Source: a virus | Lineage: Duplodnaviria > Caudoviricetes | Virus record (IMG/VR): IMGVR_UViG_3300022862_000025 | Location: 1-26,256 of that record | Reading direction: 5' to 3' (one strand) | DNA length: 26,256 bases | In this document: positions 755-15,927 of the stretch, one piece after another | Layout: each line of letters starts with the position of its first letter | Numbering within the stretch: the stretch's first letter is position 1 | Made by a program: the position numbers and the translations under genes | Notes under the pieces: generated by a model | The model's input: the letters and a program-made list of their open reading frames with translations, nothing else | What the model was told of the DNA's origin: nothing | The model's database searches: none

Positions 755-1540
755 TTAGTAGTATATTGGTCTATCTTCATTTAAATATTTATACTCAAGA
801 TAAAATTCACAATCAAAATCACCTGTAAAAGTAAATGTTGAAGAAGAATTCCTATCAAAATCTAACCAAATATCATTGTGATTATTATGCAAATATCTAT
901 TAAGTGATTTTTGAAAACCACTTATAATTTCTTCGTTTTCACAATTAACCAAAATAACTTCTTTGTCATATAACCCTGTCAATTTGAATTCTTGCTTATT
1001 TTCTTCATTCTTTATTGAAATATCACCATCGCCAATTTTTGTGATTTTTAATTGTGGACGAATAGTTGCATCACCTTCATTGTAAAAATACGGTTCTGCT
1101 TTTCCTCGCACAGATACATAATGCGGTATGAGAGGGGAGTAGCTATATGGTGAATCACATCGAACATTTAAAGTTACGTGTCCATCTTGACATCCGTTAT
1201 GTATAAGCTCACTGTTACCTTCAATGATTGCATAAAATACTCGATCTAAGTTTGATTCAAAAATTAGAGGCTTATAGTAATCAGTGAACAACCACCTAGA
1301 TATGGCTCTCAAATTGTTTCTATCTTTCCAATCTTTAATGAAAAAAGACAAAGAAAAAGAGAGTGGATTATTTTCCACTCCCATGAAGTACGGTCTATCT
1401 TTTCCATTTATCTTATTTTCTCTAATTGAACGGTTTGGTAGGAAGGTTTCTTTGTATAATCCACCTCCGTCATTAATCATTACAACGCCCATATCTTCAC
1501 TAGACTCACCGTTGTATGTGAAGTTGAGAGATTGATACAT
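755..1540 (-). CDS. Distal tail protein (Dit, YomH-like)
   Basis: 261 aa immediately after the tape measure, with a TAATG stop/start overlap at 1540 and an AGGAGGT RBS. Siphophage Dit-like motifs FTYNGESSEDMGV, RCDSPYSYS and NEGDATIRP. Confidence 0.85.
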   Translation of the reverse strand: MYQSLNFTYNGESSEDMGVVMINDGGGLYKETFLPNRSIRENKINGKDRPYFMGVENNPLSFSLSFFIKDWKDRNNLRAISRWLFTDYYKPLIFESNLDRVFYAIIEGNSELIHNGCQDGHVTLNVRCDSPYSYSPLIPHYVSVRGKAEPYFYNEGDATIRPQLKITKIGDGDISIKNEENKQEFKLTGLYDKEVILVNCENEEIISGFQKSLNRYLHNNHNDIWLDFDRNSSSTFTFTGDFDCEFYLEYKYLNEDRPIYY

Positions 1541-4500
1541 TAAAACTTACCTCCTTTTTTCGTTTTTACATTATTTATAAATGATGTAGCAAATGTCTCA
1601 GCTTGATCTTTGGTAGCTTCGATAACATCACCAAATTGAATTTGATATGTGTCACCACTTTGTTGCAAGTTGGATAGGGTAGGCTGAGGAGTGAATTTAG
1701 CTAACATAGGTTTTAAACTACTCATAACTCTATCTATAACATTGATTGAGTTAAAGAATCCTTGGGTATCTACTTTATTTAGCATGATTTCATTAGGATG
1801 AGCTATAATAGCTTTACCACCTTTACCATCGATACCATTACCTGACCAATTCATGAACCCTCCAGTATCTAATGATGCAACAAATCTCAAGAAGTCTTTT
1901 TGCATTTTAGAATCTGGAATAATATTAACTTGACTTTGCATAAAGTTCTTCATTTGTCCTTTTTGATTGCCGTCCATTAGACCAACCATAGACATAAATG
2001 AAGCATCAGATGCTAAAGTAGAACCTGATGCACGACCCTGTTGAGCCATAGTATCTGCTGTAGATTTAAGTTGTTTACGCATATTTGCATCTTTAGTTTG
2101 ACCTAACATGCTTTCATTGATGTGTTTAGCCATAAGGACTTGCATTGTTCCATAAGTCAATGGATTGGTTAGTCCATGTTTATTGCTAGACTCAATTGAC
2201 CCATAATCCGAACTATTATTAGCAAAATCTCTAATGAAATCAGAATAGTTTCCACCTTCAACTCCAGAGTTTTGTTTGAAGTATTGTTTTAAAGATTCTA
2301 ATTCAGCAGGTGTTAAACCACTGATAGCACTATCAAAGCTAACATTTTTATCAATAGTGCCACCATTTTGTCTTCCAGATTTACCGATTTGGCTACCTGT
2401 ACTATGAGCTTTATTCTTGGCGTCACCAGTAAGATGTCTTGTGACATTATCTGTTAAGAATTTGCCTAGCAGTATTTGCATGTCACCTTCATTAAGATTT
2501 CCTTTAGATACTCCACCTTGACCCATTTTACTTTCATCAAAGAAGCTTCCCGGATCAAAATTGTCACCAACTTGAGCCATAGTAGAAGCAACTTGATTAA
2601 ATTCATGAACCATATTTATAGCTTCTTGTAAATGGTCTATAACATTTTGTCTAATGGTCATACCAACAGCTTGCATAGTACCATCCATAGTATCAGCTAA
2701 ATCAGGCATAGTTAATTTCATTCGTTCAATGTGGTCTTGAAATTCAGCTACTACTTTATCAAGATGTCCATTCATAATGTCTTCTCTGATTCTTGCGAAC
2801 TCTCGCTCATCATTCATTAAGTCATTATAATGTTTCTCCCAATATTGTTTCTCTCTATCGATACGATTCATTACTTCTTCGTATTGCTTATCTTCTAACT
2901 CAATCTTGCCATTCATTTCTTCTTCTTTAGATTCAAGCATATCGCTTAAACCTTGTTTTTGTAATTCAATATCACGATCATGACGTTTTTCAGCAATATC
3001 TTTGTCAATTTGGTCAAGTTGTTCTTGTAGCTTTTTACGTTTAGATTTAGCCTCATTGGAATTATCTAATGATAGGAGGTCAAATTCTGACTGCAATTTA
3101 TTACGTTCTTTCTCCATATCATCAATTTCCATATTGTAGTCACGGTCAGCTTCTTGACGGTCAATTAAACGTAATTTTTCTTCAACATTTTTACGGAATA
3201 ATTCCATTTCATCTTCAAGTTGTTTCTTACGTTTCTCATGAGCTTCTGTCTCTTTTTTAGACATTTCCTCAATTGACTTCATATGCTCATCACGAAGTTC
3301 TTGATAATATTCTTTTAAAGCAGAAATAAATTTATCAGCAATCTCATTAAGATTACTTTTCTTGCCTTCTTCAAGTTGTTTCTGATAATCTTTGAGTCCT
3401 TTTTGGGCATTGAGATAGGCAAGATGTTCTTCACGTAACATTTTCTCTACATCTTTTCGACGTTCAAGAGAGATATCATACTGTTTCAGCTCATTTGCTA
3501 ATGCATCACGAGTTTCTAGATGTTGTTTAGCAAGTTGTTCTTGATATTTAATTAGATTTTGAGTTTGTTTAATGTATTCTCCAGTACCTTGTTCAAACAT
3601 ATCTCTAATTGCTGTAGCACGATTCATTTCAAATTGAATTTCTTCTAATTTGGCATCAGAGTTAGTTTTGATAGTCATGAGAATCTCAAAGTCTTTTTCT
3701 TGGATATCAAGTTGAAGTTGTTTAATTTCTAATCGAAGATCTCTAGCTCTAGCTGTAGCATTTTCTAATGATTCACCACTAAGTTTCCCACTGTAGATTA
3801 AATTCTCAAGATAAGTTAATTCTTGACGATTTAGATTCTGAGAATCCTTTCTCATCTTATTCATTTTTTCTAATGATTGAAGGTATCTTAATGAATTAGA
3901 ATCCAATTCCTGAAGTTTTAATGCTTCATAATCTAAAGCTTTGCTGCTAAGAGCTTGTAATTCACTGTATTTATTGATTAATTGATCAACAGTTTTAACA
4001 TATGATTCTAGAATTTTATTCTGAATTTCTAGCTTAGAAGAATCTATTTCATGGTTAACTTTAGCTAATTCATTTATTTTTTGATTTAATTCATCAATAG
4101 TTTTATCTGTTAACTTACCATTTTTAATAGTATCTTCTAAGAATTTAATTTCAGCATTATTTTCTGTTTGTTTAGCGGTAAGAGCTTTAGTTTGTGCTTC
4201 AAGTTCTTTTCGATATTCCTCAGATGTATCGCTTAATCTACTTAATCGTACTTCTGAGTTTTCTAAAGTTTTATCATAGTTACTCTTACGATTTTCATAT
4301 CCTGCTAAATTAGCATCAATTAATTGACGTTTTAAGTCTTCGATATTGTTTTGTTGATTTAAAATTTCTTTATTTAAACCGTTCAAATCAGACATAGCTT
4401 GATCAATAGCTTGTTGAGAAGTATCAATACCTACTCCAGCGCCGCCATTAGTACCTTTGTATTTATTGTAGTATTGGTCTGCCGCAGATGCTCGTTTCTT

Positions 4501-7500
4501 ATTACCTGAACCACCTGAACGTTCGAAATTCTTCTCAAACTCTGTTGCATGTTGTGAAGCTGTAAGATTAGTCTTTTTTAATCCTTCTAGACTTTTCTTT
4601 TCTTTTCCTTGCATTTCTTTCCAAGCGTAGTCTAATTGTACTTCTAAGTCAGTCCATGATTTACCTACTGATTTAGCATAATCTTGTAGTCCAGTTTTAC
4701 GTCCACCTAACCATTGGAAAATACCGCTAGCACCACTTGACTTATTAACTGCTTTAGAATTAAAGTTTGATTCTTGCTTAATATTGCCCATTAATCCAGC
4801 TACGGCTTCATCACTTAAACCTTTATTCTTAAAGTAATTCCATACTACTGTTTCAGGAGTACTAGACACCGTAGTAGCATTAGATTTAGTGGAAGTTGTC
4901 GCTGTCTTATTACCACTTCTAATAGCATTGACAGTATCTAATGAGCTAACTACTTTGCCATCTGCGGTATTTTGTTCATAGTGTAAATGAGGACCCGTTG
5001 ATTTACCAGTATTACCTGATTTACCGACTTGTTGACCTGCTTCAACTTGATCTCCAACTTTTACAAGGGTATCATCTAAGTGAGCTAGGATATGCTTCAT
5101 ACCTTGATCATCTTGAACAACCACCATGTTACCGTATGACCAGTGCATTGCTTTACCATTTTTATCAGAAGTAGCTGCGCCAGATTTTATAACTTTACCA
5201 CTTACTGGAGAGTCTACACGAGAACCAGTCTTCATAGCAATATCAGTACCACGATGATTATCTGCACGTTCGCCAGGTCTAGAAGTTATCTTACCATCAT
5301 AACCATGAATCTTACCGCCTGAACCACTATTAACATTAACGTTTCCAGTTTGTTGAATTTTACCAGACTTAATTTGTTGGTCAATAGACTTAGACTGGTC
5401 TTTCATTATCTGAAGCTTTTGTTGCTCTAATGCTAATTCTTTCTCTAATGATTTGCGATAATCTTTAGAATGCTCAGATTTAGTAGCCTGAATAGCGTTT
5501 TGTTCTTCAATAGCAAGAGTAACTTCTTCTATCTTCTTTTTATACTTATCAGTAAGATAGATAGATTGTTCTGTTTCTTTGTTGTTTTCTTTCTTAGACT
5601 TGGTATTATCTTGAGTAGCTTTGCTATTTTTACCCGTTTTAGAAGATGAATCTTCTATTGCTGCTGAGAAGCTTTCAATCTTACCAATATTAGTATTCAA
5701 ACTACTACTAAGAGTATCTAATTCTGCTTTTGATGCTGCAAGATTACTCTGCATTGCTTTTTGTTGAGCAGCTAGTCCCATTTGTGCAACATCACCAGCA
5801 AGACCTGTCAATGGTAGGGAACTTATTACTGTAGCACTAGCTAATGCCAATTGGTTTGCTCTGACATACTTACTTAGCATATCGATTTCTACTTTTAGAT
5901 TTTGGATACGAGCTTTAGCTCCACTAGCAGATGCTAAAGTAGCTTGTTGTTCAGCATTTAATTTACCATCACGAGCAAGTTTGTAAGCATTTAATAGCAC
6001 TTCATTTGCATGATTTTCAGCTTCAATAGCCTTACGTTTTTCATCTGATAGAACAATAGCTTTTCCATCTTTATCTAGCAGGTCAGGGTAGACGCTAGAC
6101 ATTTCTTGCATTGTTGCTACACGTTGATCTAGAATATTTTTAATATCTTGTTCTTTAGATGTTAAATTTTCTTTAGTGTAAATATCTTGTAATTGTTGTT
6201 CAGTGTATCCTGCTAATTGATAGGAGAGTATATCGTATTTAAGAATAAGGTCGTTTAGCGAGTCAATACCTGCTTGAGATACTCCTGCCATTTGTTCGGC
6301 GGCATCTTTATAGTCTTTCATTTTAGATGCTAATTCTGAAACTGAATCAGAAGCTCCATCTGCACCGTCAGCAAACGACTCTAGAGAGTCACTTTCTTGC
6401 AATACAACTCCATTACCACCTTTTACAGTGTTCAAGAAGTTTTTATAGTTAGTGTCAAACTTATTTACTTCAGAATCAGCTACATTGTATTTAGATGCTA
6501 ACTCATTGATACCTTTTGCTGATTTATTAAATAGTTCTGCATCATCAGTATTTACTGCTTTTTGCATATCCGACATAAGCTTGCCTAATTCTGTTGAGAA
6601 TGATTTTAATTGAGCTTCATCTAAATTAGAGAAATCTAAATCATAAAGGAAAGTAGAAATAGCATTAGTTACACCTGAATCAATTTTAATGTTAGAGAAT
6701 GCATTTGATATTTCTAGAACGTTACCAACTATTTCTTGAGTAGATGCAGACATTTGCATTTCTAGCATTTGAACGTCTGTTTGCATCTTAGTTATAAGCT
6801 TAGTCTTACTTTCTACATCATATAAAGGACTTCCACTATCTCTTTCTTTTTCTAATTGAGCAATGGCATCTTTCTTTGAATCTATTTTACCTTGAGTTTT
6901 CTCGTTACTTTTTATATTTTCTTTAAATACGTCTTCAGCGTTTGCTTTTGTTTCTTCTTTTTTAAGTCTAATTAATTCTTCAGTAGCTGCAATTTCCTTT
7001 TCAATAGCAGCACTACTTTTAATATGAGCTTGACCTGTAGAATCAATATGAGATACTAGGGCAGGGAATAGGAATGCTAAGTCTTCTTGAACTTTTAGGT
7101 ATTCCTTTTCTTTATCGGCACTCCAATCTCCACTATTTTTAGCATCAGAAAGTGAGTTATACTTTGCAATTAATTCATCAACTCTGTCTTTATTGTCTGT
7201 CAATGCAGATGTATTCTTATTAGCAACTTCCTCATACTTTTCTTGTTGCTGAATGTTTTCTGACATGATGCCAGTTAATTTCTCAATTGCGAAACCTAAT
7301 CCGACAAATATTAAGCCTACGCCCGTACTTGCAAGAACGCTCTTGAAGGTTACTCCTAATGCTGCAACAGATGCTCTAAGACTAGTTATTCCAACAGTTA
7401 AACTTCGTGTAGCTACAGTAGTACTAATTGCACTTCCTACGGCAGTACCCATTCCAATAGTTAAACTTCTGAATCCTGAGTTGAGCAAGAATACAGCAGT

Positions 7501-7998
7501 ATAAGCTGCTCCGAATAGGGGAGGGAGTAATCCTATTGTTGATACTACACTATTACCACCGTCAGCCATTCCTTCTAATGCTTTAGTAACGACAACGATT
7601 CCATCATATAAAATAGTATCTCCTACTGTTTTGCTGAAGCTAGTCCATGCTGTATCTAGTCGGTTAATCCGTCCTTCAAGGGATTCGTTATATCGCTCCT
7701 GTTCTTTCATTGCTGATCCTTGAGAATTTAATGCACTTTCATTCGCACTGATGGACATAGTGTAATTATTCATGAGCGCTGCAAGTCTATTCTGTTGATA
7801 TGTCCCAGCTACATTAATGAGTACTGACTGTTGGGCTTCTGAATTCAGGGTTCCCCATTTTTTACCTAAATCATCAATAATATCTCCAACTTCACGCATA
7901 TTACCAGATGAATCTTTAATGGATACTCCTACTCCGGCCAATGCTTCTTCCGCTTTTGGTAGGGTAGCTATACGACTAAAAATTGTTTTTAAACTGTT
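1540..7998 (-). CDS. Tail tape measure protein, exon 2 (YomI/CwlP-like, with M23 peptidase and phage-tail-lysozyme domains)
   Basis: Starts NSLKTIFSRI directly after the intron terminal G at 7999. Contains hydrophobic helices, long coiled coil, M23 motifs HRGTD and HLHYE (~4960-5310) and a lysozyme-like segment GLMGNIKQES..GIFQWLGGR..FERS (~4460-4850). Spliced product is 369+2152 = 2521 aa. Confidence 0.9.
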   Translation of the reverse strand, partial: NSLKTIFSRIATLPKAEEALAGVGVSIKDSSGNMREVGDIIDDLGKKWGTLNSEAQQSVLINVAGTYQQNRLAALMNNYTMSISANESALNSQGSAMKEQERYNESLEGRINRLDTAWTSFSKTVGDTILYDGIVVVTKALEGMADGGNSVVSTIGLLPPLFGAAYTAVFLLNSGFRSLTIGMGTAVGSAISTTVATRSLTVGITSLRASVAALGVTFKSVLASTGVGLIFVGLGFAIEKLTGIMSENIQQQEKYEEVANKNTSALTDNKDRVDELIAKYNSLSDAKNSGDWSADKEKEYLKVQEDLAFLFPALVSHIDSTGQAHIKSSAAIEKEIAATEELIRLKKEETKANAEDVFKENIKSNEKTQGKIDSKKDAIAQLEKERDSGSPLYDVESKTKLITKMQTDVQMLEMQMSASTQEIVGNVLEISNAFSNIKIDSGVTNAISTFLYDLDFSNLDEAQLKSFSTELGKLMSDMQKAVNTDDAELFNKSAKGINELASKYNVADSEVNKFDTNYKNFLNTVKGGNGVVLQESDSLESFADGADGASDSVSELASKMKDYKDAAEQMAGVSQAGIDSLNDLILKYDILSYQLAGYTEQQLQDIYTKENLTSKEQDIKNILDQRVATMQEMSSVYPDLLDKDGKAIVLSDEKRKAIEAENHANEVLLNAYKLARDGKLNAEQQATLASASGAKARIQNLKVEIDMLSKYVRANQLALASATVISSLPLTGLAGDVAQMGLAAQQKAMQSNLAASKAELDTLSSSLNTNIGKIESFSAAIEDSSSKTGKNSKATQDNTKSKKENNKETEQSIYLTDKYKKKIEEVTLAIEEQNAIQATKSEHSKDYRKSLEKELALEQQKLQIMKDQSKSIDQQIKSGKIQQTGNVNVNSGSGGKIHGYDGKITSRPGERADNHRGTDIAMKTGSRVDSPVSGKVIKSGAATSDKNGKAMHWSYGNMVVVQDDQGMKHILAHLDDTLVKVGDQVEAGQQVGKSGNTGKSTGPHLHYEQNTADGKVVSSLDTVNAIRSGNKTATTSTKSNATTVSSTPETVVWNYFKNKGLSDEAVAGLMGNIKQESNFNSKAVNKSSGASGIFQWLGGRKTGLQDYAKSVGKSWTDLEVQLDYAWKEMQGKEKKSLEGLKKTNLTASQHATEFEKNFERSGGSGNKKRASAADQYYNKYKGTNGGAGVGIDTSQQAIDQAMSDLNGLNKEILNQQNNIEDLKRQLIDANLAGYENRKSNYDKTLENSEVRLSRLSDTSEEYRKELEAQTKALTAKQTENNAEIKFLEDTIKNGKLTDKTIDELNQKINELAKVNHEIDSSKLEIQNKILESYVKTVDQLINKYSELQALSSKALDYEALKLQELDSNSLRYLQSLEKMNKMRKDSQNLNRQELTYLENLIYSGKLSGESLENATARARDLRLEIKQLQLDIQEKDFEILMTIKTNSDAKLEEIQFEMNRATAIRDMFEQGTGEYIKQTQNLIKYQEQLAKQHLETRDALANELKQYDISLERRKDVEKMLREEHLAYLNAQKGLKDYQKQLEEGKKSNLNEIADKFISALKEYYQELRDEHMKSIEEMSKKETEAHEKRKKQLEDEMELFRKNVEEKLRLIDRQEADRDYNMEIDDMEKERNKLQSEFDLLSLDNSNEAKSKRKKLQEQLDQIDKDIAEKRHDRDIELQKQGLSDMLESKEEEMNGKIELEDKQYEEVMNRIDREKQYWEKHYNDLMNDEREFARIREDIMNGHLDKVVAEFQDHIERMKLTMPDLADTMDGTMQAVGMTIRQNVIDHLQEAINMVHEFNQVASTMAQVGDNFDPGSFFDESKMGQGGVSKGNLNEGDMQILLGKFLTDNVTRHLTGDAKNKAHSTGSQIGKSGRQNGGTIDKNVSFDSAISGLTPAELESLKQYFKQNSGVEGGNYSDFIRDFANNSSDYGSIESSNKHGLTNPLTYGTMQVLMAKHINESMLGQTKDANMRKQLKSTADTMAQQGRASGSTLASDASFMSMVGLMDGNQKGQMKNFMQSQVNIIPDSKMQKDFLRFVASLDTGGFMNWSGNGIDGKGGKAIIAHPNEIMLNKVDTQGFFNSINVIDRVMSSLKPMLAKFTPQPTLSNLQQSGDTYQIQFGDVIEATKDQAETFATSFINNVKTKKGGKF

Positions 7999-8180
7999 CA
8001 CTCTGTTACTTTCATCCAACAATTAAGGATTACTGACTAATCTAATTTAGATTAGCGGAAAAGGTACTTCTTTAAAGTGTCTTTACACTTGACCTTCTCT
8101 CTATACCTTTACACATACGTATAGATCAGACTGTATCATTAACTCATAATCCACCTTTAATCACATTCCACTGTTTAATA
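7999..8180 (-). ncRNA. Group I intron 3' core (3' strands of P8 and P7, P9 domain, omega-G)
   Basis: P8 3' strand AUUAUGAGUUA (8140-8150). S-like element UGAUACAGUC containing P7 CAGUC (8129-8133). P9 hairpins UCUAUAC/GUAUAGA, AAGUGU-AAAG-ACACUU and CUAAUCUA/UAGAUUAG. Terminal G at 7999. Confidence 0.88.
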
Positions 8181-8190
8181 AGGTGAAGTA

Positions 8191-8220
8191 ATAAAAAAGA
8201 GTAGGGAATTAATCCTACTC
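8191..8220 (-). terminator. Intrinsic terminator after the homing endonuclease gene, inside the intron
   Basis: GAGTAGG-ATTAATTC-CCTACTC followed by TTTTTTAT. The stem overlaps the TGA stop. Confidence 0.75.
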
Positions 8221-9682
8221 ATGATAATTTGCCGTATTTTTGTTCATATTCTTCAAGATACATCCAGTAATATCCTTTAAGTATACTCTCATTACCTTCG
8301 CATCTATCCTTAATGTATCTACCTGTTCCTCTATTATTGTAAACTTCTATCCCAGCTTTACTCATAGAATGGTATACCCTTATAAAACAATAACTTTCGT
8401 CCATTTGTACTATCGATTTAGACTTTTTATTATTTATCGCAACTCTCTCATTCATTGAATCTTTATTATATGAGCATAGTTTCAAACGTTGTCCGATTTT
8501 CAAATACTTAGTTATAGTAGCAGTACTTAATTTAAACATGTTTGATAATTCCGCATTGCCAAAAGTAGGGTTTTCATCAAAAGCTTTACAGACAAAAATA
8601 ATCATTGACGATAATGACTTTTTCTCTATTTCTTTCCAATCAACATTACATAACTTCAACTTTTCTAACAATCCCAATTCTCTTATTCTATTTGATAAAA
8701 CATCTATATTTCTATCTGAAACTTCTATGTTATAATAATGTTCAATTCCATTTTCTCTAGCTAGTTGTTCTTTTAATCTGTCGTTCTCTTGTTCTTCGTC
8801 TAAGGTTCTGTGGCTTAATGTCTCAAAAGTCCTTTTGTAATGTTGCTCTCCGTTAATTTCTATAATTGTTGATATTTCATCTAATATAAAATCATAACGT
8901 CTTCCTTGAGAATAATTGGTTGTTGAGTCATATTTAAAATTCACACCATTATCAGATAAAAGATTAAGCATTACTTTTTCACCAAAACTAATCCCATCAT
9001 TGCATATAGGGCAACATAAACCTTGTCTTACCACCGTTACCAATTGCTTATTTATACGATTTCCACATCCACATACGAATTCTAATTTCTGCTTTGATCC
9101 ATGAGAATATATATCTGCATCAGACTTATTTAAAAGAATATCTTTTATACGTGGGTGAGTAAATCCTACATTATTATACCCTACTAATACTCTTCTATTA
9201 CTACAATATGGACATCCATTGCCATTTTTCCTATCACCAACCATTGCATCATAATAATGTCCTTTGTCACATACCCACCAAAATTTTTGTTTTTCACTAG
9301 AAGGAGTGACATCATAAGGAGTTAAATGACCATTCAATGTAGGATGCCATTCCTTTATTAATTGTGGGTACAGTATTCCTAGATTGTAATGTTCTGATGC
9401 TACTTTTCCTATACACACCTTGCAACCATGACCATTTACTTTATTTTTAATAAATTGTGGTACAATGTTTCCGCATTCCATACATTTGAAGAACACTTTC
9501 TTACCACTTCCATAACTTACTTTATATATATCATCATTAACATTCTGAGTAAAATCCCAAACTTCCCATAAATCTGGGCGGTGTTTCAACATAGCGTTGT
9601 CTTTCAACTTATCCACCATGCTCCAATCTAATTCTTTGCCAGTTTGAAAATTTATGTATTTATTCTCTTTAGCTTCACACAT
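8219..9682 (-). CDS. Intron-encoded putative homing endonuclease (zinc-ribbon repeats, Vsr-like/EDxHD-type nuclease, NUMOD1-like C-terminus)
   Basis: 487 aa with an AGGAGGT RBS. Three zinc-ribbon-like repeats (e.g. EWHPTLNG.LTP.DV...WWVCDKGH...GCPYC). Nuclease motifs SFGEK, YDF, EINGEQH and NDRLK. C-terminal IVQMD...YHSMSKAG...KGYYWMY resembles NUMOD1. Confidence 0.8.
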   Translation of the reverse strand: MCEAKENKYINFQTGKELDWSMVDKLKDNAMLKHRPDLWEVWDFTQNVNDDIYKVSYGSGKKVFFKCMECGNIVPQFIKNKVNGHGCKVCIGKVASEHYNLGILYPQLIKEWHPTLNGHLTPYDVTPSSEKQKFWWVCDKGHYYDAMVGDRKNGNGCPYCSNRRVLVGYNNVGFTHPRIKDILLNKSDADIYSHGSKQKLEFVCGCGNRINKQLVTVVRQGLCCPICNDGISFGEKVMLNLLSDNGVNFKYDSTTNYSQGRRYDFILDEISTIIEINGEQHYKRTFETLSHRTLDEEQENDRLKEQLARENGIEHYYNIEVSDRNIDVLSNRIRELGLLEKLKLCNVDWKEIEKKSLSSMIIFVCKAFDENPTFGNAELSNMFKLSTATITKYLKIGQRLKLCSYNKDSMNERVAINNKKSKSIVQMDESYCFIRVYHSMSKAGIEVYNNRGTGRYIKDRCEGNESILKGYYWMYLEEYEQKYGKLS

Positions 9683-9686
9683 TATT

Positions 9687-9794
9687 AATTACCTCCTACA
9701 GTAATTTCATATTTCCTAAATATAATTAAATAGGGAAGTAAAGTTAGGATGCTTTACTTGTCAATAAGGTTTGCAATTCCTTGTCTATCCCTAT
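9687..9794 (-). promoter_or_regulatory. Structured 5' leader of the endonuclease mRNA
   Basis: Closing stem AUAGGGA/UCCCUAU encloses hairpins AAGG-AAUUGCAAA-CCUU and AAGUAAAG-CAUCCUAA-CUUUACUU. A further hairpin AAUUAC/GUAAUU surrounds the SD. Confidence 0.55.
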
Positions 9795-9800
9795 ATTTAA

Positions 9801-9829
9801 ATATTACCATATTAATAATCTTATTACAA
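9801..9829 (-). promoter_or_regulatory. SigA-type promoter for the endonuclease gene
   Basis: TTGTAA, 17 nt spacer, TAATAT with a TGn extended -10, just upstream of a structured leader. Confidence 0.6.
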
Positions 9830-9859
9830 CTTAATATTATTTATTTTATGTATTTATTA

Positions 9860-10020
9860 TATTAAATAGTGGAATGTGATTAATTTAAATTATGAGTTAC
9901 ACCTTGTCAGTCGTTCGAGCGTTTCTTTGATTGACGCTTCGGTGATCGTCCACTTACGTGGATTTCCCCCGATATTCGGTGTTCAATATAATGTCGCCAT
10001 TATAAGGGGCTATTATGTTA
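9860..10020 (-). ncRNA. Group I intron 5' catalytic core (P1-P6, 5' strands of P7 and P8)
   Basis: P2 UAUAAUG-GCGA-CAUUAUA (9987-10004). P3 ACACC/GGUGU. P5 UCCAC-GUAA-GUGGA. P6 GCGU..ACGC. P7 5' strand GACUG (9908-9912). P8 5' strand UAACUCAUAAU (9889-9899). Confidence 0.88.
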
Positions 10021-11127
10021 ACCTACAACGTTTCCTGATTCACGAGTTGCTGCACCTATAGCAGTAGTGTAACCAACAAGTTCTTCCATACTTACGCCAT
10101 ACGCCTTGGCGGACTGTGCCGCACGACCCATCGATAATGCTAGGTCTTTAGTAGTGATTGAAAAGTTGTTGTCTACCTCATTTAAAGCATCTGCAATTCT
10201 AATTGAATCTTCCGCAGCAACGTTGAATGCCAATTGCCCAGCGACCAAAGTATCTACAGACTCTTTAGCGTTTAAATCTGATATATTAGTAAACATTTGT
10301 GCAGTGTTAGTTAAATCTAATGAGTCAGAAGCATTATATCCCATACGAGCAAACTCATTCAGTATTTCAAGATATTCAGTAGTGACGCCTGATAATTCTC
10401 GCACATTTACTAAAGACTTTTCTATCATCTCATTGAACTGGTACTCAGGAGCATTCATGACTCTGGCTAAACCTATGAGAGCGCTGTCTAATTCGATTGT
10501 ACGCTCAGTCATATCTTGAATACCACGAATAGGGGCATAAAATGCTGTAGATGCTAACATCCAGATTGGAAATTTTGTAAAAGCAGTAGAGAAGGCGTTG
10601 CCTAATTCGTTAGTTGACTTGGATGCATCCCTAGCATCAATATTAAGTCGTTTAATACTTTCACGTAATGCATTAATTTCTCTTTGATTTTGCTTCAAAG
10701 ATGCAGGATTCATTACTTGAATATTCTTCAACTTATCAATTTCTGATTTTAATTCAGCAACTTTAGACTTATCCATTGCTCTAGGTAACATTTTTTCTAT
10801 ACGATACAATTCAGTACTTAATTTACCTAGTGAAGCAACTTGTTTATCGTACATATCAGTGACTTTAGATGTTTCACTAGATGCTGATTTATTACTTCCA
10901 GTGCTTGAAAGTTGATTCTTTAGCTTGGACACTTGCTTCTGTAATTCTTCAATATCCTTACTTGATGCTTTTAATCCACTAGAGTCTATCCCTACTGAAA
11001 TTAATAATGGATTTTTATCATAATACTTTTTCAACGCTTGTACGTATTGATCAATATTTTGTTGTGACCTACCTCTATTGACATCTAAACTCATTAAGAG
11101 TTCAATAGGGTTACTTGTCATAGACAT
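10021..11127 (-). CDS. Tail tape measure protein, exon 1 (N-terminal coiled coil and start of the TP901-type TMP domain)
   Basis: AAGGAGG RBS. TMP motifs EFARMGY, IADALNEVDNNF and ELVGYTTAIGAATRESGNVVG. The TAA at 10018-10020 is the first three bases of the intron. Confidence 0.9.
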
Positions 11128-11160
11128 TTATTATTCCTCCTTATTATATTTTTAGGGTAA

Positions 11161-11187
11161 ATAAAAAACACCATAAGAAGATGGTGT
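11161..11187 (-). terminator. Intrinsic terminator directly upstream of the tape measure gene
   Basis: ACACCAT-CTTCTT-ATGGTGT followed by TTTTTAT. Confidence 0.75.
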
Positions 11188-15894: not shown

Positions 15895-15927
15895 AATAAA
15901 AAGAGAGTAGGGGAGTTAACCCTACTC
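15895..15927 (-). terminator. Intrinsic terminator after the tail tube gene
   Basis: GAGTAGGG-TTAACTC-CCCTACTC followed by TCTTTTTATT. Confidence 0.75.

Follow-up and report, generated by a model that had tools for sequence, protein, structure and literature searches.

A terminator hairpin within a group I-type intron of an SPbeta-like phage tape measure gene: the probable end of an endonuclease cassette

A hairpin and an adjoining U tract close an endonuclease gene that lies inside the group I-type intron of a tape measure protein (TMP) gene, and they are a real feature of this DNA, not a product of chance. The gene belongs to an SPbeta-like phage and was analysed in a 26,256-nucleotide stretch of viral DNA, referred to here as the window. 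The reading that we favour, and hold with reasonable though limited confidence, is that the hairpin ends a self-contained cassette in loop L8 of the intron and that the late TMP RNA is probably made by a YonO-type polymerase, which would read through it.

The tape measure gene and its intron

The genes of the window lie mostly on the minus strand, in the order terminase, portal, capsid and tail genes, TMP and distal tail, and the 26-kb virus record stops at the terminase gene. The phage was recognised as SPbeta-like because the N-terminus of its TMP matched SPbeta yomI and relatives in a homologous, syntenic late module; the portal and capsid proteins were 51% and 43% identical, respectively, to those of SPbeta. 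Two metagenome contigs (L058, 139 kb, and L059, 109 kb) encoded identical proteins, with 100% identity over the region.

TMP exon 1 (10021..11127, minus strand) was delimited by frame, domain and homology analysis, and exon 2 (1540..7998, minus strand) encodes M23 peptidase and tail lysozyme domains. Removal of the intron (10020-7999) gave an open TMP frame of 2522 aa and rejoined positions 5-134 of Pfam PF10145 with positions 136-201. Alleles without an intron (e.g. L004 and L017-L019) read straight across the insertion site, and the TMP homologues were either intron-less or had introns at this site and nearby.

The intron itself is 2022 nt long (7999..10020, minus strand) and was assigned to the group I type on the basis of its core elements and of the frame restored by excision. 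The group I features found, all on the minus strand, were P1, including the U.G pair of the 5' splice site, P3 (9982-9978/9903-9899), P7 (9912-9908/8133-8129), P8 and a terminal G. P8 has 10 bp and is prolonged by an extension, P8a, made up of a perfect 16-bp helix and a further imperfect stretch. The 5' arms (9861..9898, minus strand) comprise P8 at 9898-9889 and P8a at 9883-9861; the 3' arms (8141..8179, minus strand), which were kept in the introns of proviruses G001 and G002, comprise P8a at 8179-8157 and P8 at 8150-8141. The whole duplex of 5' and 3' arms has an energy of -40.4 kcal/mol. The endonuclease gene sits in the loop L8, which is about 1.7 kb long. Rfam gave no match at the gathering score and two matches at chance E-values, the core being split by the 1.7 kb. 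The two halves of the intron are contiguous and on the same strand, not separately encoded as the halves of trans-spliced introns are.

In the same sample, a sibling intron with no ORF was seen in another TMP-like gene (run X2, records 4 and 6; window 9913-10014 and 7979-7999). Its 5' core appears to be the one seen in the window, whereas P8 is short and the 3' end is not the same.

The terminator and the endonuclease cassette

The hairpin (8199..8220) lies on the minus strand, which is the sense strand, and consists of a 7-bp stem with four G-C pairs and an 8-nt loop; read from 8220 to 8199 on that strand, its sequence is GAGTAGG-ATTAATTC-CCTACTC. It overlaps the TGA stop codon of the endonuclease gene (8221-8219). 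The stem is followed directly by the U tract UUUUUUAUU (TTTTTTATT; 8190..8198, minus strand), in which eight of the first nine bases are U. The folding energy was -9.4 kcal/mol at 37 C with z = -2.87, and 3 of 200 shuffles folded equally well. The score for B. subtilis-type terminators, for which only the coefficient lambda (0.144) was taken from PMC1187862, was d = 3.69. No shuffled sequence reached this value, neither among 1000 dinucleotide shuffles made from the local 101 nt nor among 200 made from the whole intron.

The 3' arm of the P8 extension, which belongs to the 3' half of the core, begins 11 nt past the U tract, and the hairpin is upstream of the 3' arms of P8a, P8 and P7 and of exon 2 (from 7998). 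Coordinates and shuffles thus agree with the original prediction that a hairpin and U tract end the endonuclease gene before P8', P7' and exon 2. The further claim, that a full-length TMP pre-mRNA needs read-through, is supported as well.

The hairpin pattern had no match in 401 genomes of the class. A generic GAGTAGG hairpin gave 125 matches in viral contigs, with a group I 3' core downstream only in the G001 copy, and the exact hairpin was found in only two independent introns.

The gene that precedes the hairpin encodes a predicted homing endonuclease of 487 aa (8219..9682, minus strand) with two DUF4379 zinc fingers and a nuclease motif that we take to be Vsr/EDxHD-like. It matched phrog_559 (E 4e-31) and phrog_9084 (E 1e-17), placing a nuclease-family sequence in the intron loop. 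Protein searches returned mostly long zinc-finger repeat proteins without genomic context, none of five stretches from a direct scan of viral contigs was confirmed as a relative, and a search of solved structures gave no useful endonuclease match (C-terminal part only).

Upstream of the gene, a sigma-A-type promoter (9801..9829, minus strand) was predicted from TTGTAA, a 17-nt spacer and the extended -10 element TG-G-TAATAT. It scored 8/12 plus the TG, which is under the threshold of the promoter scan. TGnTAATAT was retained in three of four related cassettes, and the -35 box was not retained in a free-standing copy. The promoter is followed by a conserved leader with the ribosome-binding site TAGGAGG at 9698-9692 (9690..9800, minus strand), which among the loci examined was present in four cassettes only. 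A search for the leader across 401 genomes from the order to which G004 belongs gave 12 weak, AT-rich matches, none of which was recovered by the leader profile. The leader was also considered as a possible YonO promoter, but within the stretches examined neither yonO nor the start of the operon had a copy of it nearby. Its folding support was weak (z -1.9), with no Rfam match. A possible pairing of GG(A/G)AGT with ACTTCC and an anti-Shine-Dalgarno-like stretch were also seen in the leader (9800-9690).

As judged from sequence, the predicted promoter, the leader, the gene and the terminator would together make up a portable cassette. The conserved promoter-like site inside the intron would allow host RNA polymerase to make an endonuclease-only mRNA, as had been proposed.

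Related introns and their cargo

The TMP gene of provirus G001 carries another group I core, at a site 12 nt further upstream, and the intron of G001 and that of the window have the P8 arms, the leader and the ribosome-binding site in common. The endonuclease of the G001 intron is 30% identical to that of the window; the same stem lies over its stop codon and is followed by seven U (d = 5.55). Between the two hairpins, the stem and U tract are kept and the loop varies. In provirus G002, the second core, that of G001, occurs with the same arms and a different cargo, a 140-aa PBECR3-fold ORF followed by another terminator-like hairpin (d ~2.5), which lies 279 nt before the 3' arm and was missed by the consensus scan. 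G002 also has an endonuclease with the same leader that is free-standing, outside introns (L057).

An automated survey of 40 sequences gave 28 TMP insertions, 22 of them non-duplicate; the introns of G001 and G002, whose TMPs have diverged, were missed by the survey and were scored by hand. No terminator was scored in 20 of the 21 other non-duplicate insertions, and the match in the remaining one (L025) was inside the ORF, which indicates that the hairpin goes with the cargo and not with the ribozyme core.

Several further observations were made on these loci. Behind the PBECR3-fold ORF at L045:2440-3700 in G002 come about 470 non-coding nt, which hold G+C-rich stems and another promoter-like site; this cargo is possibly a nuclease and RNA module in an intron, and a second group I-like intron lies about 200 nt downstream. 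At L057:1500-3140 in the same provirus, the free-standing cassette is followed by half a hairpin (CCCCTACTC) and another terminator-like stem, and the start of the next gene looks PemK/MazF-like by eye. In two introns at the TMP site of the window (L005:6540-7905 and L025:6585-7706), a Vsr-like ORF with a zinc finger lies upstream of P7 instead of in L8, and it is not followed by a terminator. A 659-nt insertion in a TMP homologue (L011:6440-7100) has no ORF, and its 3' end, examined by eye, is presumably like a group II-type domain V. The TMP of Geobacillus virus E3, annotated as two genes (L001:8544-8829), is probably a single gene that is interrupted by a group I intron about 300 nt long.

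Terminators of the late operon

The intron hairpin is one of eight sense terminators scored in the window, six of which are upstream of the intron; the same scoring gave 11 in the SPbeta yonK-yomA stretch, where the SPbeta record (NC_001884) has seven annotated minus-strand stem-loops, one of them directly before yomI. In the window, a terminator was predicted just before the TMP start (11161..11187, minus strand, d = 2.74), at the same position as the stem-loop annotated before yomI. This second terminator had been anticipated, together with the lack of a convincing promoter between it and the TMP start. The latter judgement also stands, because the only promoter-like feature between the terminator and the ATG is a lone -10-like TATAAT at 11148 that lacks both a -35 box and a TG, and a transcript start from it would fall in the ribosome-binding site.

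A near-twin of the intron terminator was found after the predicted major tail gene (15895..15927, minus strand). The stem of the intron hairpin is the same as that of this terminator (15927-15905), with two matches in the window and none in 100 shuffles. The twin is also present in G001, G002 and G004, and the G001 intron copy of the hairpin differs from the window's major-tail-gene hairpin at 1 of 23 bases. The retention of the twin in four genomes, where no host promoter is evident, points to a late polymerase that may respond to hairpins of this type.

Strong terminator-like hairpins were also seen within or at the start of late genes, at window 1382-1350 in the distal tail gene, with a counterpart in G001, and at 20084-20055 in the gene after the capsid gene. 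Near-identical intergenic stretches of about 50 nt precede consecutive head genes (window 21805-21745 and 21175-21115).

The late polymerase

According to the accessible part of PMC5467207, the late genes of SPbeta form one operon that is made by YonO and is silent without yonO, and YonO apparently lacks the regulatory domains of multi-subunit polymerases, including the hairpin-sensing ones. Little pausing of YonO is described in the parts available of that paper and of PMC8270828. YonO-like proteins were found in all seven relatives checked (G001-G005, G406 and G407), and this result, with the SPbeta-like nature of the phage, lends weight to a phage polymerase as in the original suggestion, in which such an enzyme would resist terminators. 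Genome searches gave a weak match or none for the G002 protein, which was recovered by tblastn as a frame of 915 aa whose identity to the G001 protein is 33%. In G003, the closest relative, the terminase and an integrase-like protein are 84% and 96% identical, respectively, to those of the window. Its YonO-like protein is 56% identical to SPbeta YonO and is encoded about 4 kb upstream of the terminase gene; the matching position would lie beyond the end of the window.

The proposal that the intron terminator ties splicing to the late programme found no support in the form in which it was put. Six predicted sense terminators already precede exon 1, and the SPbeta late cluster is one YonO transcript across such hairpins (PMC5467207, accessible part), so the intron terminator adds no new timing gate. 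With gating already in place upstream in the operon, its effect on gene timing would be small.

In the favoured reading, host polymerase would start near 9795 and stop near 8192, yielding an endonuclease mRNA of about 1.6 kb, and, except in the late phase, the stop at the hairpin would silence the 3' core, exon 2 with its cell-wall hydrolase domains and the tail genes. The intron terminator and those upstream would be passed by the late polymerase, the long P8 helix would close the 1.7-kb loop and the intron would splice in cis. The terminator would then insulate exon 2 from cassette transcripts, with late timing set by the operon promoter.

Contigs from RNA-labelled runs

The stretch was present in 24 soil runs, 18 of which were labelled RNA. 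Contigs, not reads, were examined for seven of these 18 and for one probable DNA run; contigs cannot show RNA ends or strand and drop rare forms, and run X1 may itself be the source of the window sequence. A contig bridged the hairpin in all seven RNA-labelled runs and none ended there, with DNA possibly present. The bridging contigs count neither for nor against termination as such; at face value, and with the same proviso as to DNA, they speak against tight termination of all transcripts. No exon-exon joint was found in the contigs of these seven runs, rare forms being dropped from contigs. In five of the seven, the endonuclease-gene contig began at 9570-9763, near the predicted start and at differing places. 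These starts, which have AT-rich DNA and a branch carrying a related leader next to them, were given no weight, nor was the bin depth, which did not follow G+C in three runs.

UACAUA sites and a repeated motif

A UACAUA site is present in loop L8 (9847..9852, minus strand) and a second one in the endonuclease gene (9658-9653, minus strand). This sequence is given as the target of B. subtilis MazF in the accessible part of bioRxiv 10.64898/2026.08.06.743204, and the target as enriched in SPbeta-like transcripts in that of bioRxiv 10.1101/2023.04.27.537455. TACATA occurred 28 times in sense and 15 times in antisense orientation (shuffle mean 14.3, maximum 25), with none in the 7566 nt of the TMP exons and two in the intron.

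The motif AAATACATA, which contains UACAUA, had 15 sense copies and no antisense copy (window 21790-9661, minus strand). It is mostly intergenic, frequently placed directly ahead of a ribosome-binding site or in the interval from a stop codon to the terminator behind it, and is absent from the TMP exons and present twice in the intron. A role as late promoter or antitermination site was rejected as its main reading, because among the copies listed for G001 and G003 the motif follows coding strands genome-wide, and because it includes the MazF target.

Alternative explanations

The alternative that survives best, although we consider it unlikely, is a leaky attenuator at which part of the late transcripts stop too, raising endonuclease over TMP mRNA, with a low-copy TMP that tolerates the loss. 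A step-down of transcripts from high-copy to low-copy genes after the major tail gene is established phage logic and makes sense of a hairpin placed there, and the stem of the intron hairpin matches that one, which the window has in common with G001, G002 and G004. A partial stop also has a precedent in the internal terminator of T4 mobE, at which about 30% of transcripts end (PMC2988022, accessible part). However, losses at a leaky intron hairpin would multiply over the six further terminators upstream, and SPbeta makes one late operon across similar hairpins with a polymerase that apparently has no hairpin-sensing domains (PMC5467207, accessible part).

It is improbable that the hairpin has little effect on polymerases, as a 3'-protective or processing stem or a left-over that arrived with the endonuclease gene. 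The retention of the stem and U tract while the loop varies and the protein falls to 30% identity argues against this, as does a score within the range of the other terminators of the operon. What can be said for it is that the loop has 8 nt and the energy is modest, that the hairpin is bridged by contigs in all seven RNA-labelled runs (DNA possibly present), that a stem with T6 is common among viral contigs (~250 stretches, an estimate) and that terminator-like stems without termination exist (PMC1187862).

The intron could also be imagined to splice in trans. A conditional form of this idea, in which the terminator and the MazF site split the pre-mRNA in L8 and the P8 clamp of about 35 bp re-joins a terminated late transcript with one that was read through from the internal promoter, the DNA being unsplit, is very doubtful. 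We give hardly any credence to the form in which late RNA stopped at the hairpin (exon 1 and 5' core) pairs through P8 with read-through RNA from the internal promoter (3' core and exon 2). Because the promoter follows the 5' arm and the terminator precedes the 3' arm, each RNA would have one free arm, and the duplex would contribute its -40.4 kcal/mol. In nature, L8 is also the usual place of the split in group I introns that splice in trans (PMC3873408, accessible part), and the UACAUA in L8 could split the RNA too. Nevertheless, an undivided gene can be spliced in cis, a single terminator would have to halt one RNA and be passed by the other, a 1.7-kb loop needs a long helix in cis as well, and no spliced joint was found in the contigs of the seven RNA-labelled runs.

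Host polymerase with a phage processive antiterminator (Q/LoaP-like) would suit the many sense terminators within one operon, but it is a most improbable source of the late RNA in view of the YonO-like genes in all seven relatives, the silence of the SPbeta late genes without yonO (PMC5467207, accessible part) and the genome-wide placement on coding strands of the candidate site, AAATACATA, with its MazF target.

Comparison with known systems

The td, nrdB and nrdD (sunY) introns of T4, with I-TevI/II/III, each carry an endonuclease gene that, inside its group I intron, has an internal promoter of its own (PMC2988022, accessible part). An intron endonuclease expressed apart from its host gene is common to these introns and the window, where the promoter is predicted. 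In T4, the internal promoter is middle or late and the host gene early or middle, the ORF's 3' end runs into the core, and no terminator behind the ORF is described in the accessible part of the same paper. The window would reverse this logic, with a late host gene, a predicted host-type internal promoter and a terminator that ends the ORF before the 3' core.

T4 mobE and segF are cases of an intrinsic terminator tied to a homing endonuclease gene mid-way in a needed transcript; these genes are free-standing, the terminator is near the 5' end and an own promoter rescues the downstream gene (PMC2988022, accessible part). In contrast, no rescue promoter in the window can supply RNA that is spliceable in cis. 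Prophages of the Bacillus cereus group have group I introns at several sites of the TMP gene (TMP-IVS1/2/3), for which the accessible part of PMC2504315 describes no internal terminator, whereas the intron of the window has a 1.7-kb L8 cassette. The SPbeta late operon and the window have in common the gene order and several predicted terminators that are crossed, one of them directly before the TMP gene; SPbeta differs in that yomI has no intron at this site. In trans-spliced organellar introns, L8 is the usual breakpoint, and any break made by the terminator of the window would fall in L8, but those introns are split in the DNA and the intron of the window is contiguous (PMC3873408, accessible part). 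A literature search in which few subscription papers were covered, and which included the accessible part of PMC10914365, found neither a description of a terminator within a group I intron of a phage nor work on termination by YonO.

Significance

If the favoured reading is correct, a phage that has its own, terminator-insensitive late polymerase can park whole host-transcribed units, along with their terminators, in the intron of an essential gene at no cost. This would explain the swapping of cargo in these L8 loops and would reverse the T4 scheme of endonuclease timing. The locus would also be a natural template for the question of whether YonO obeys intrinsic terminators, since one hairpin would be read by two polymerases, with splicing as the read-out.
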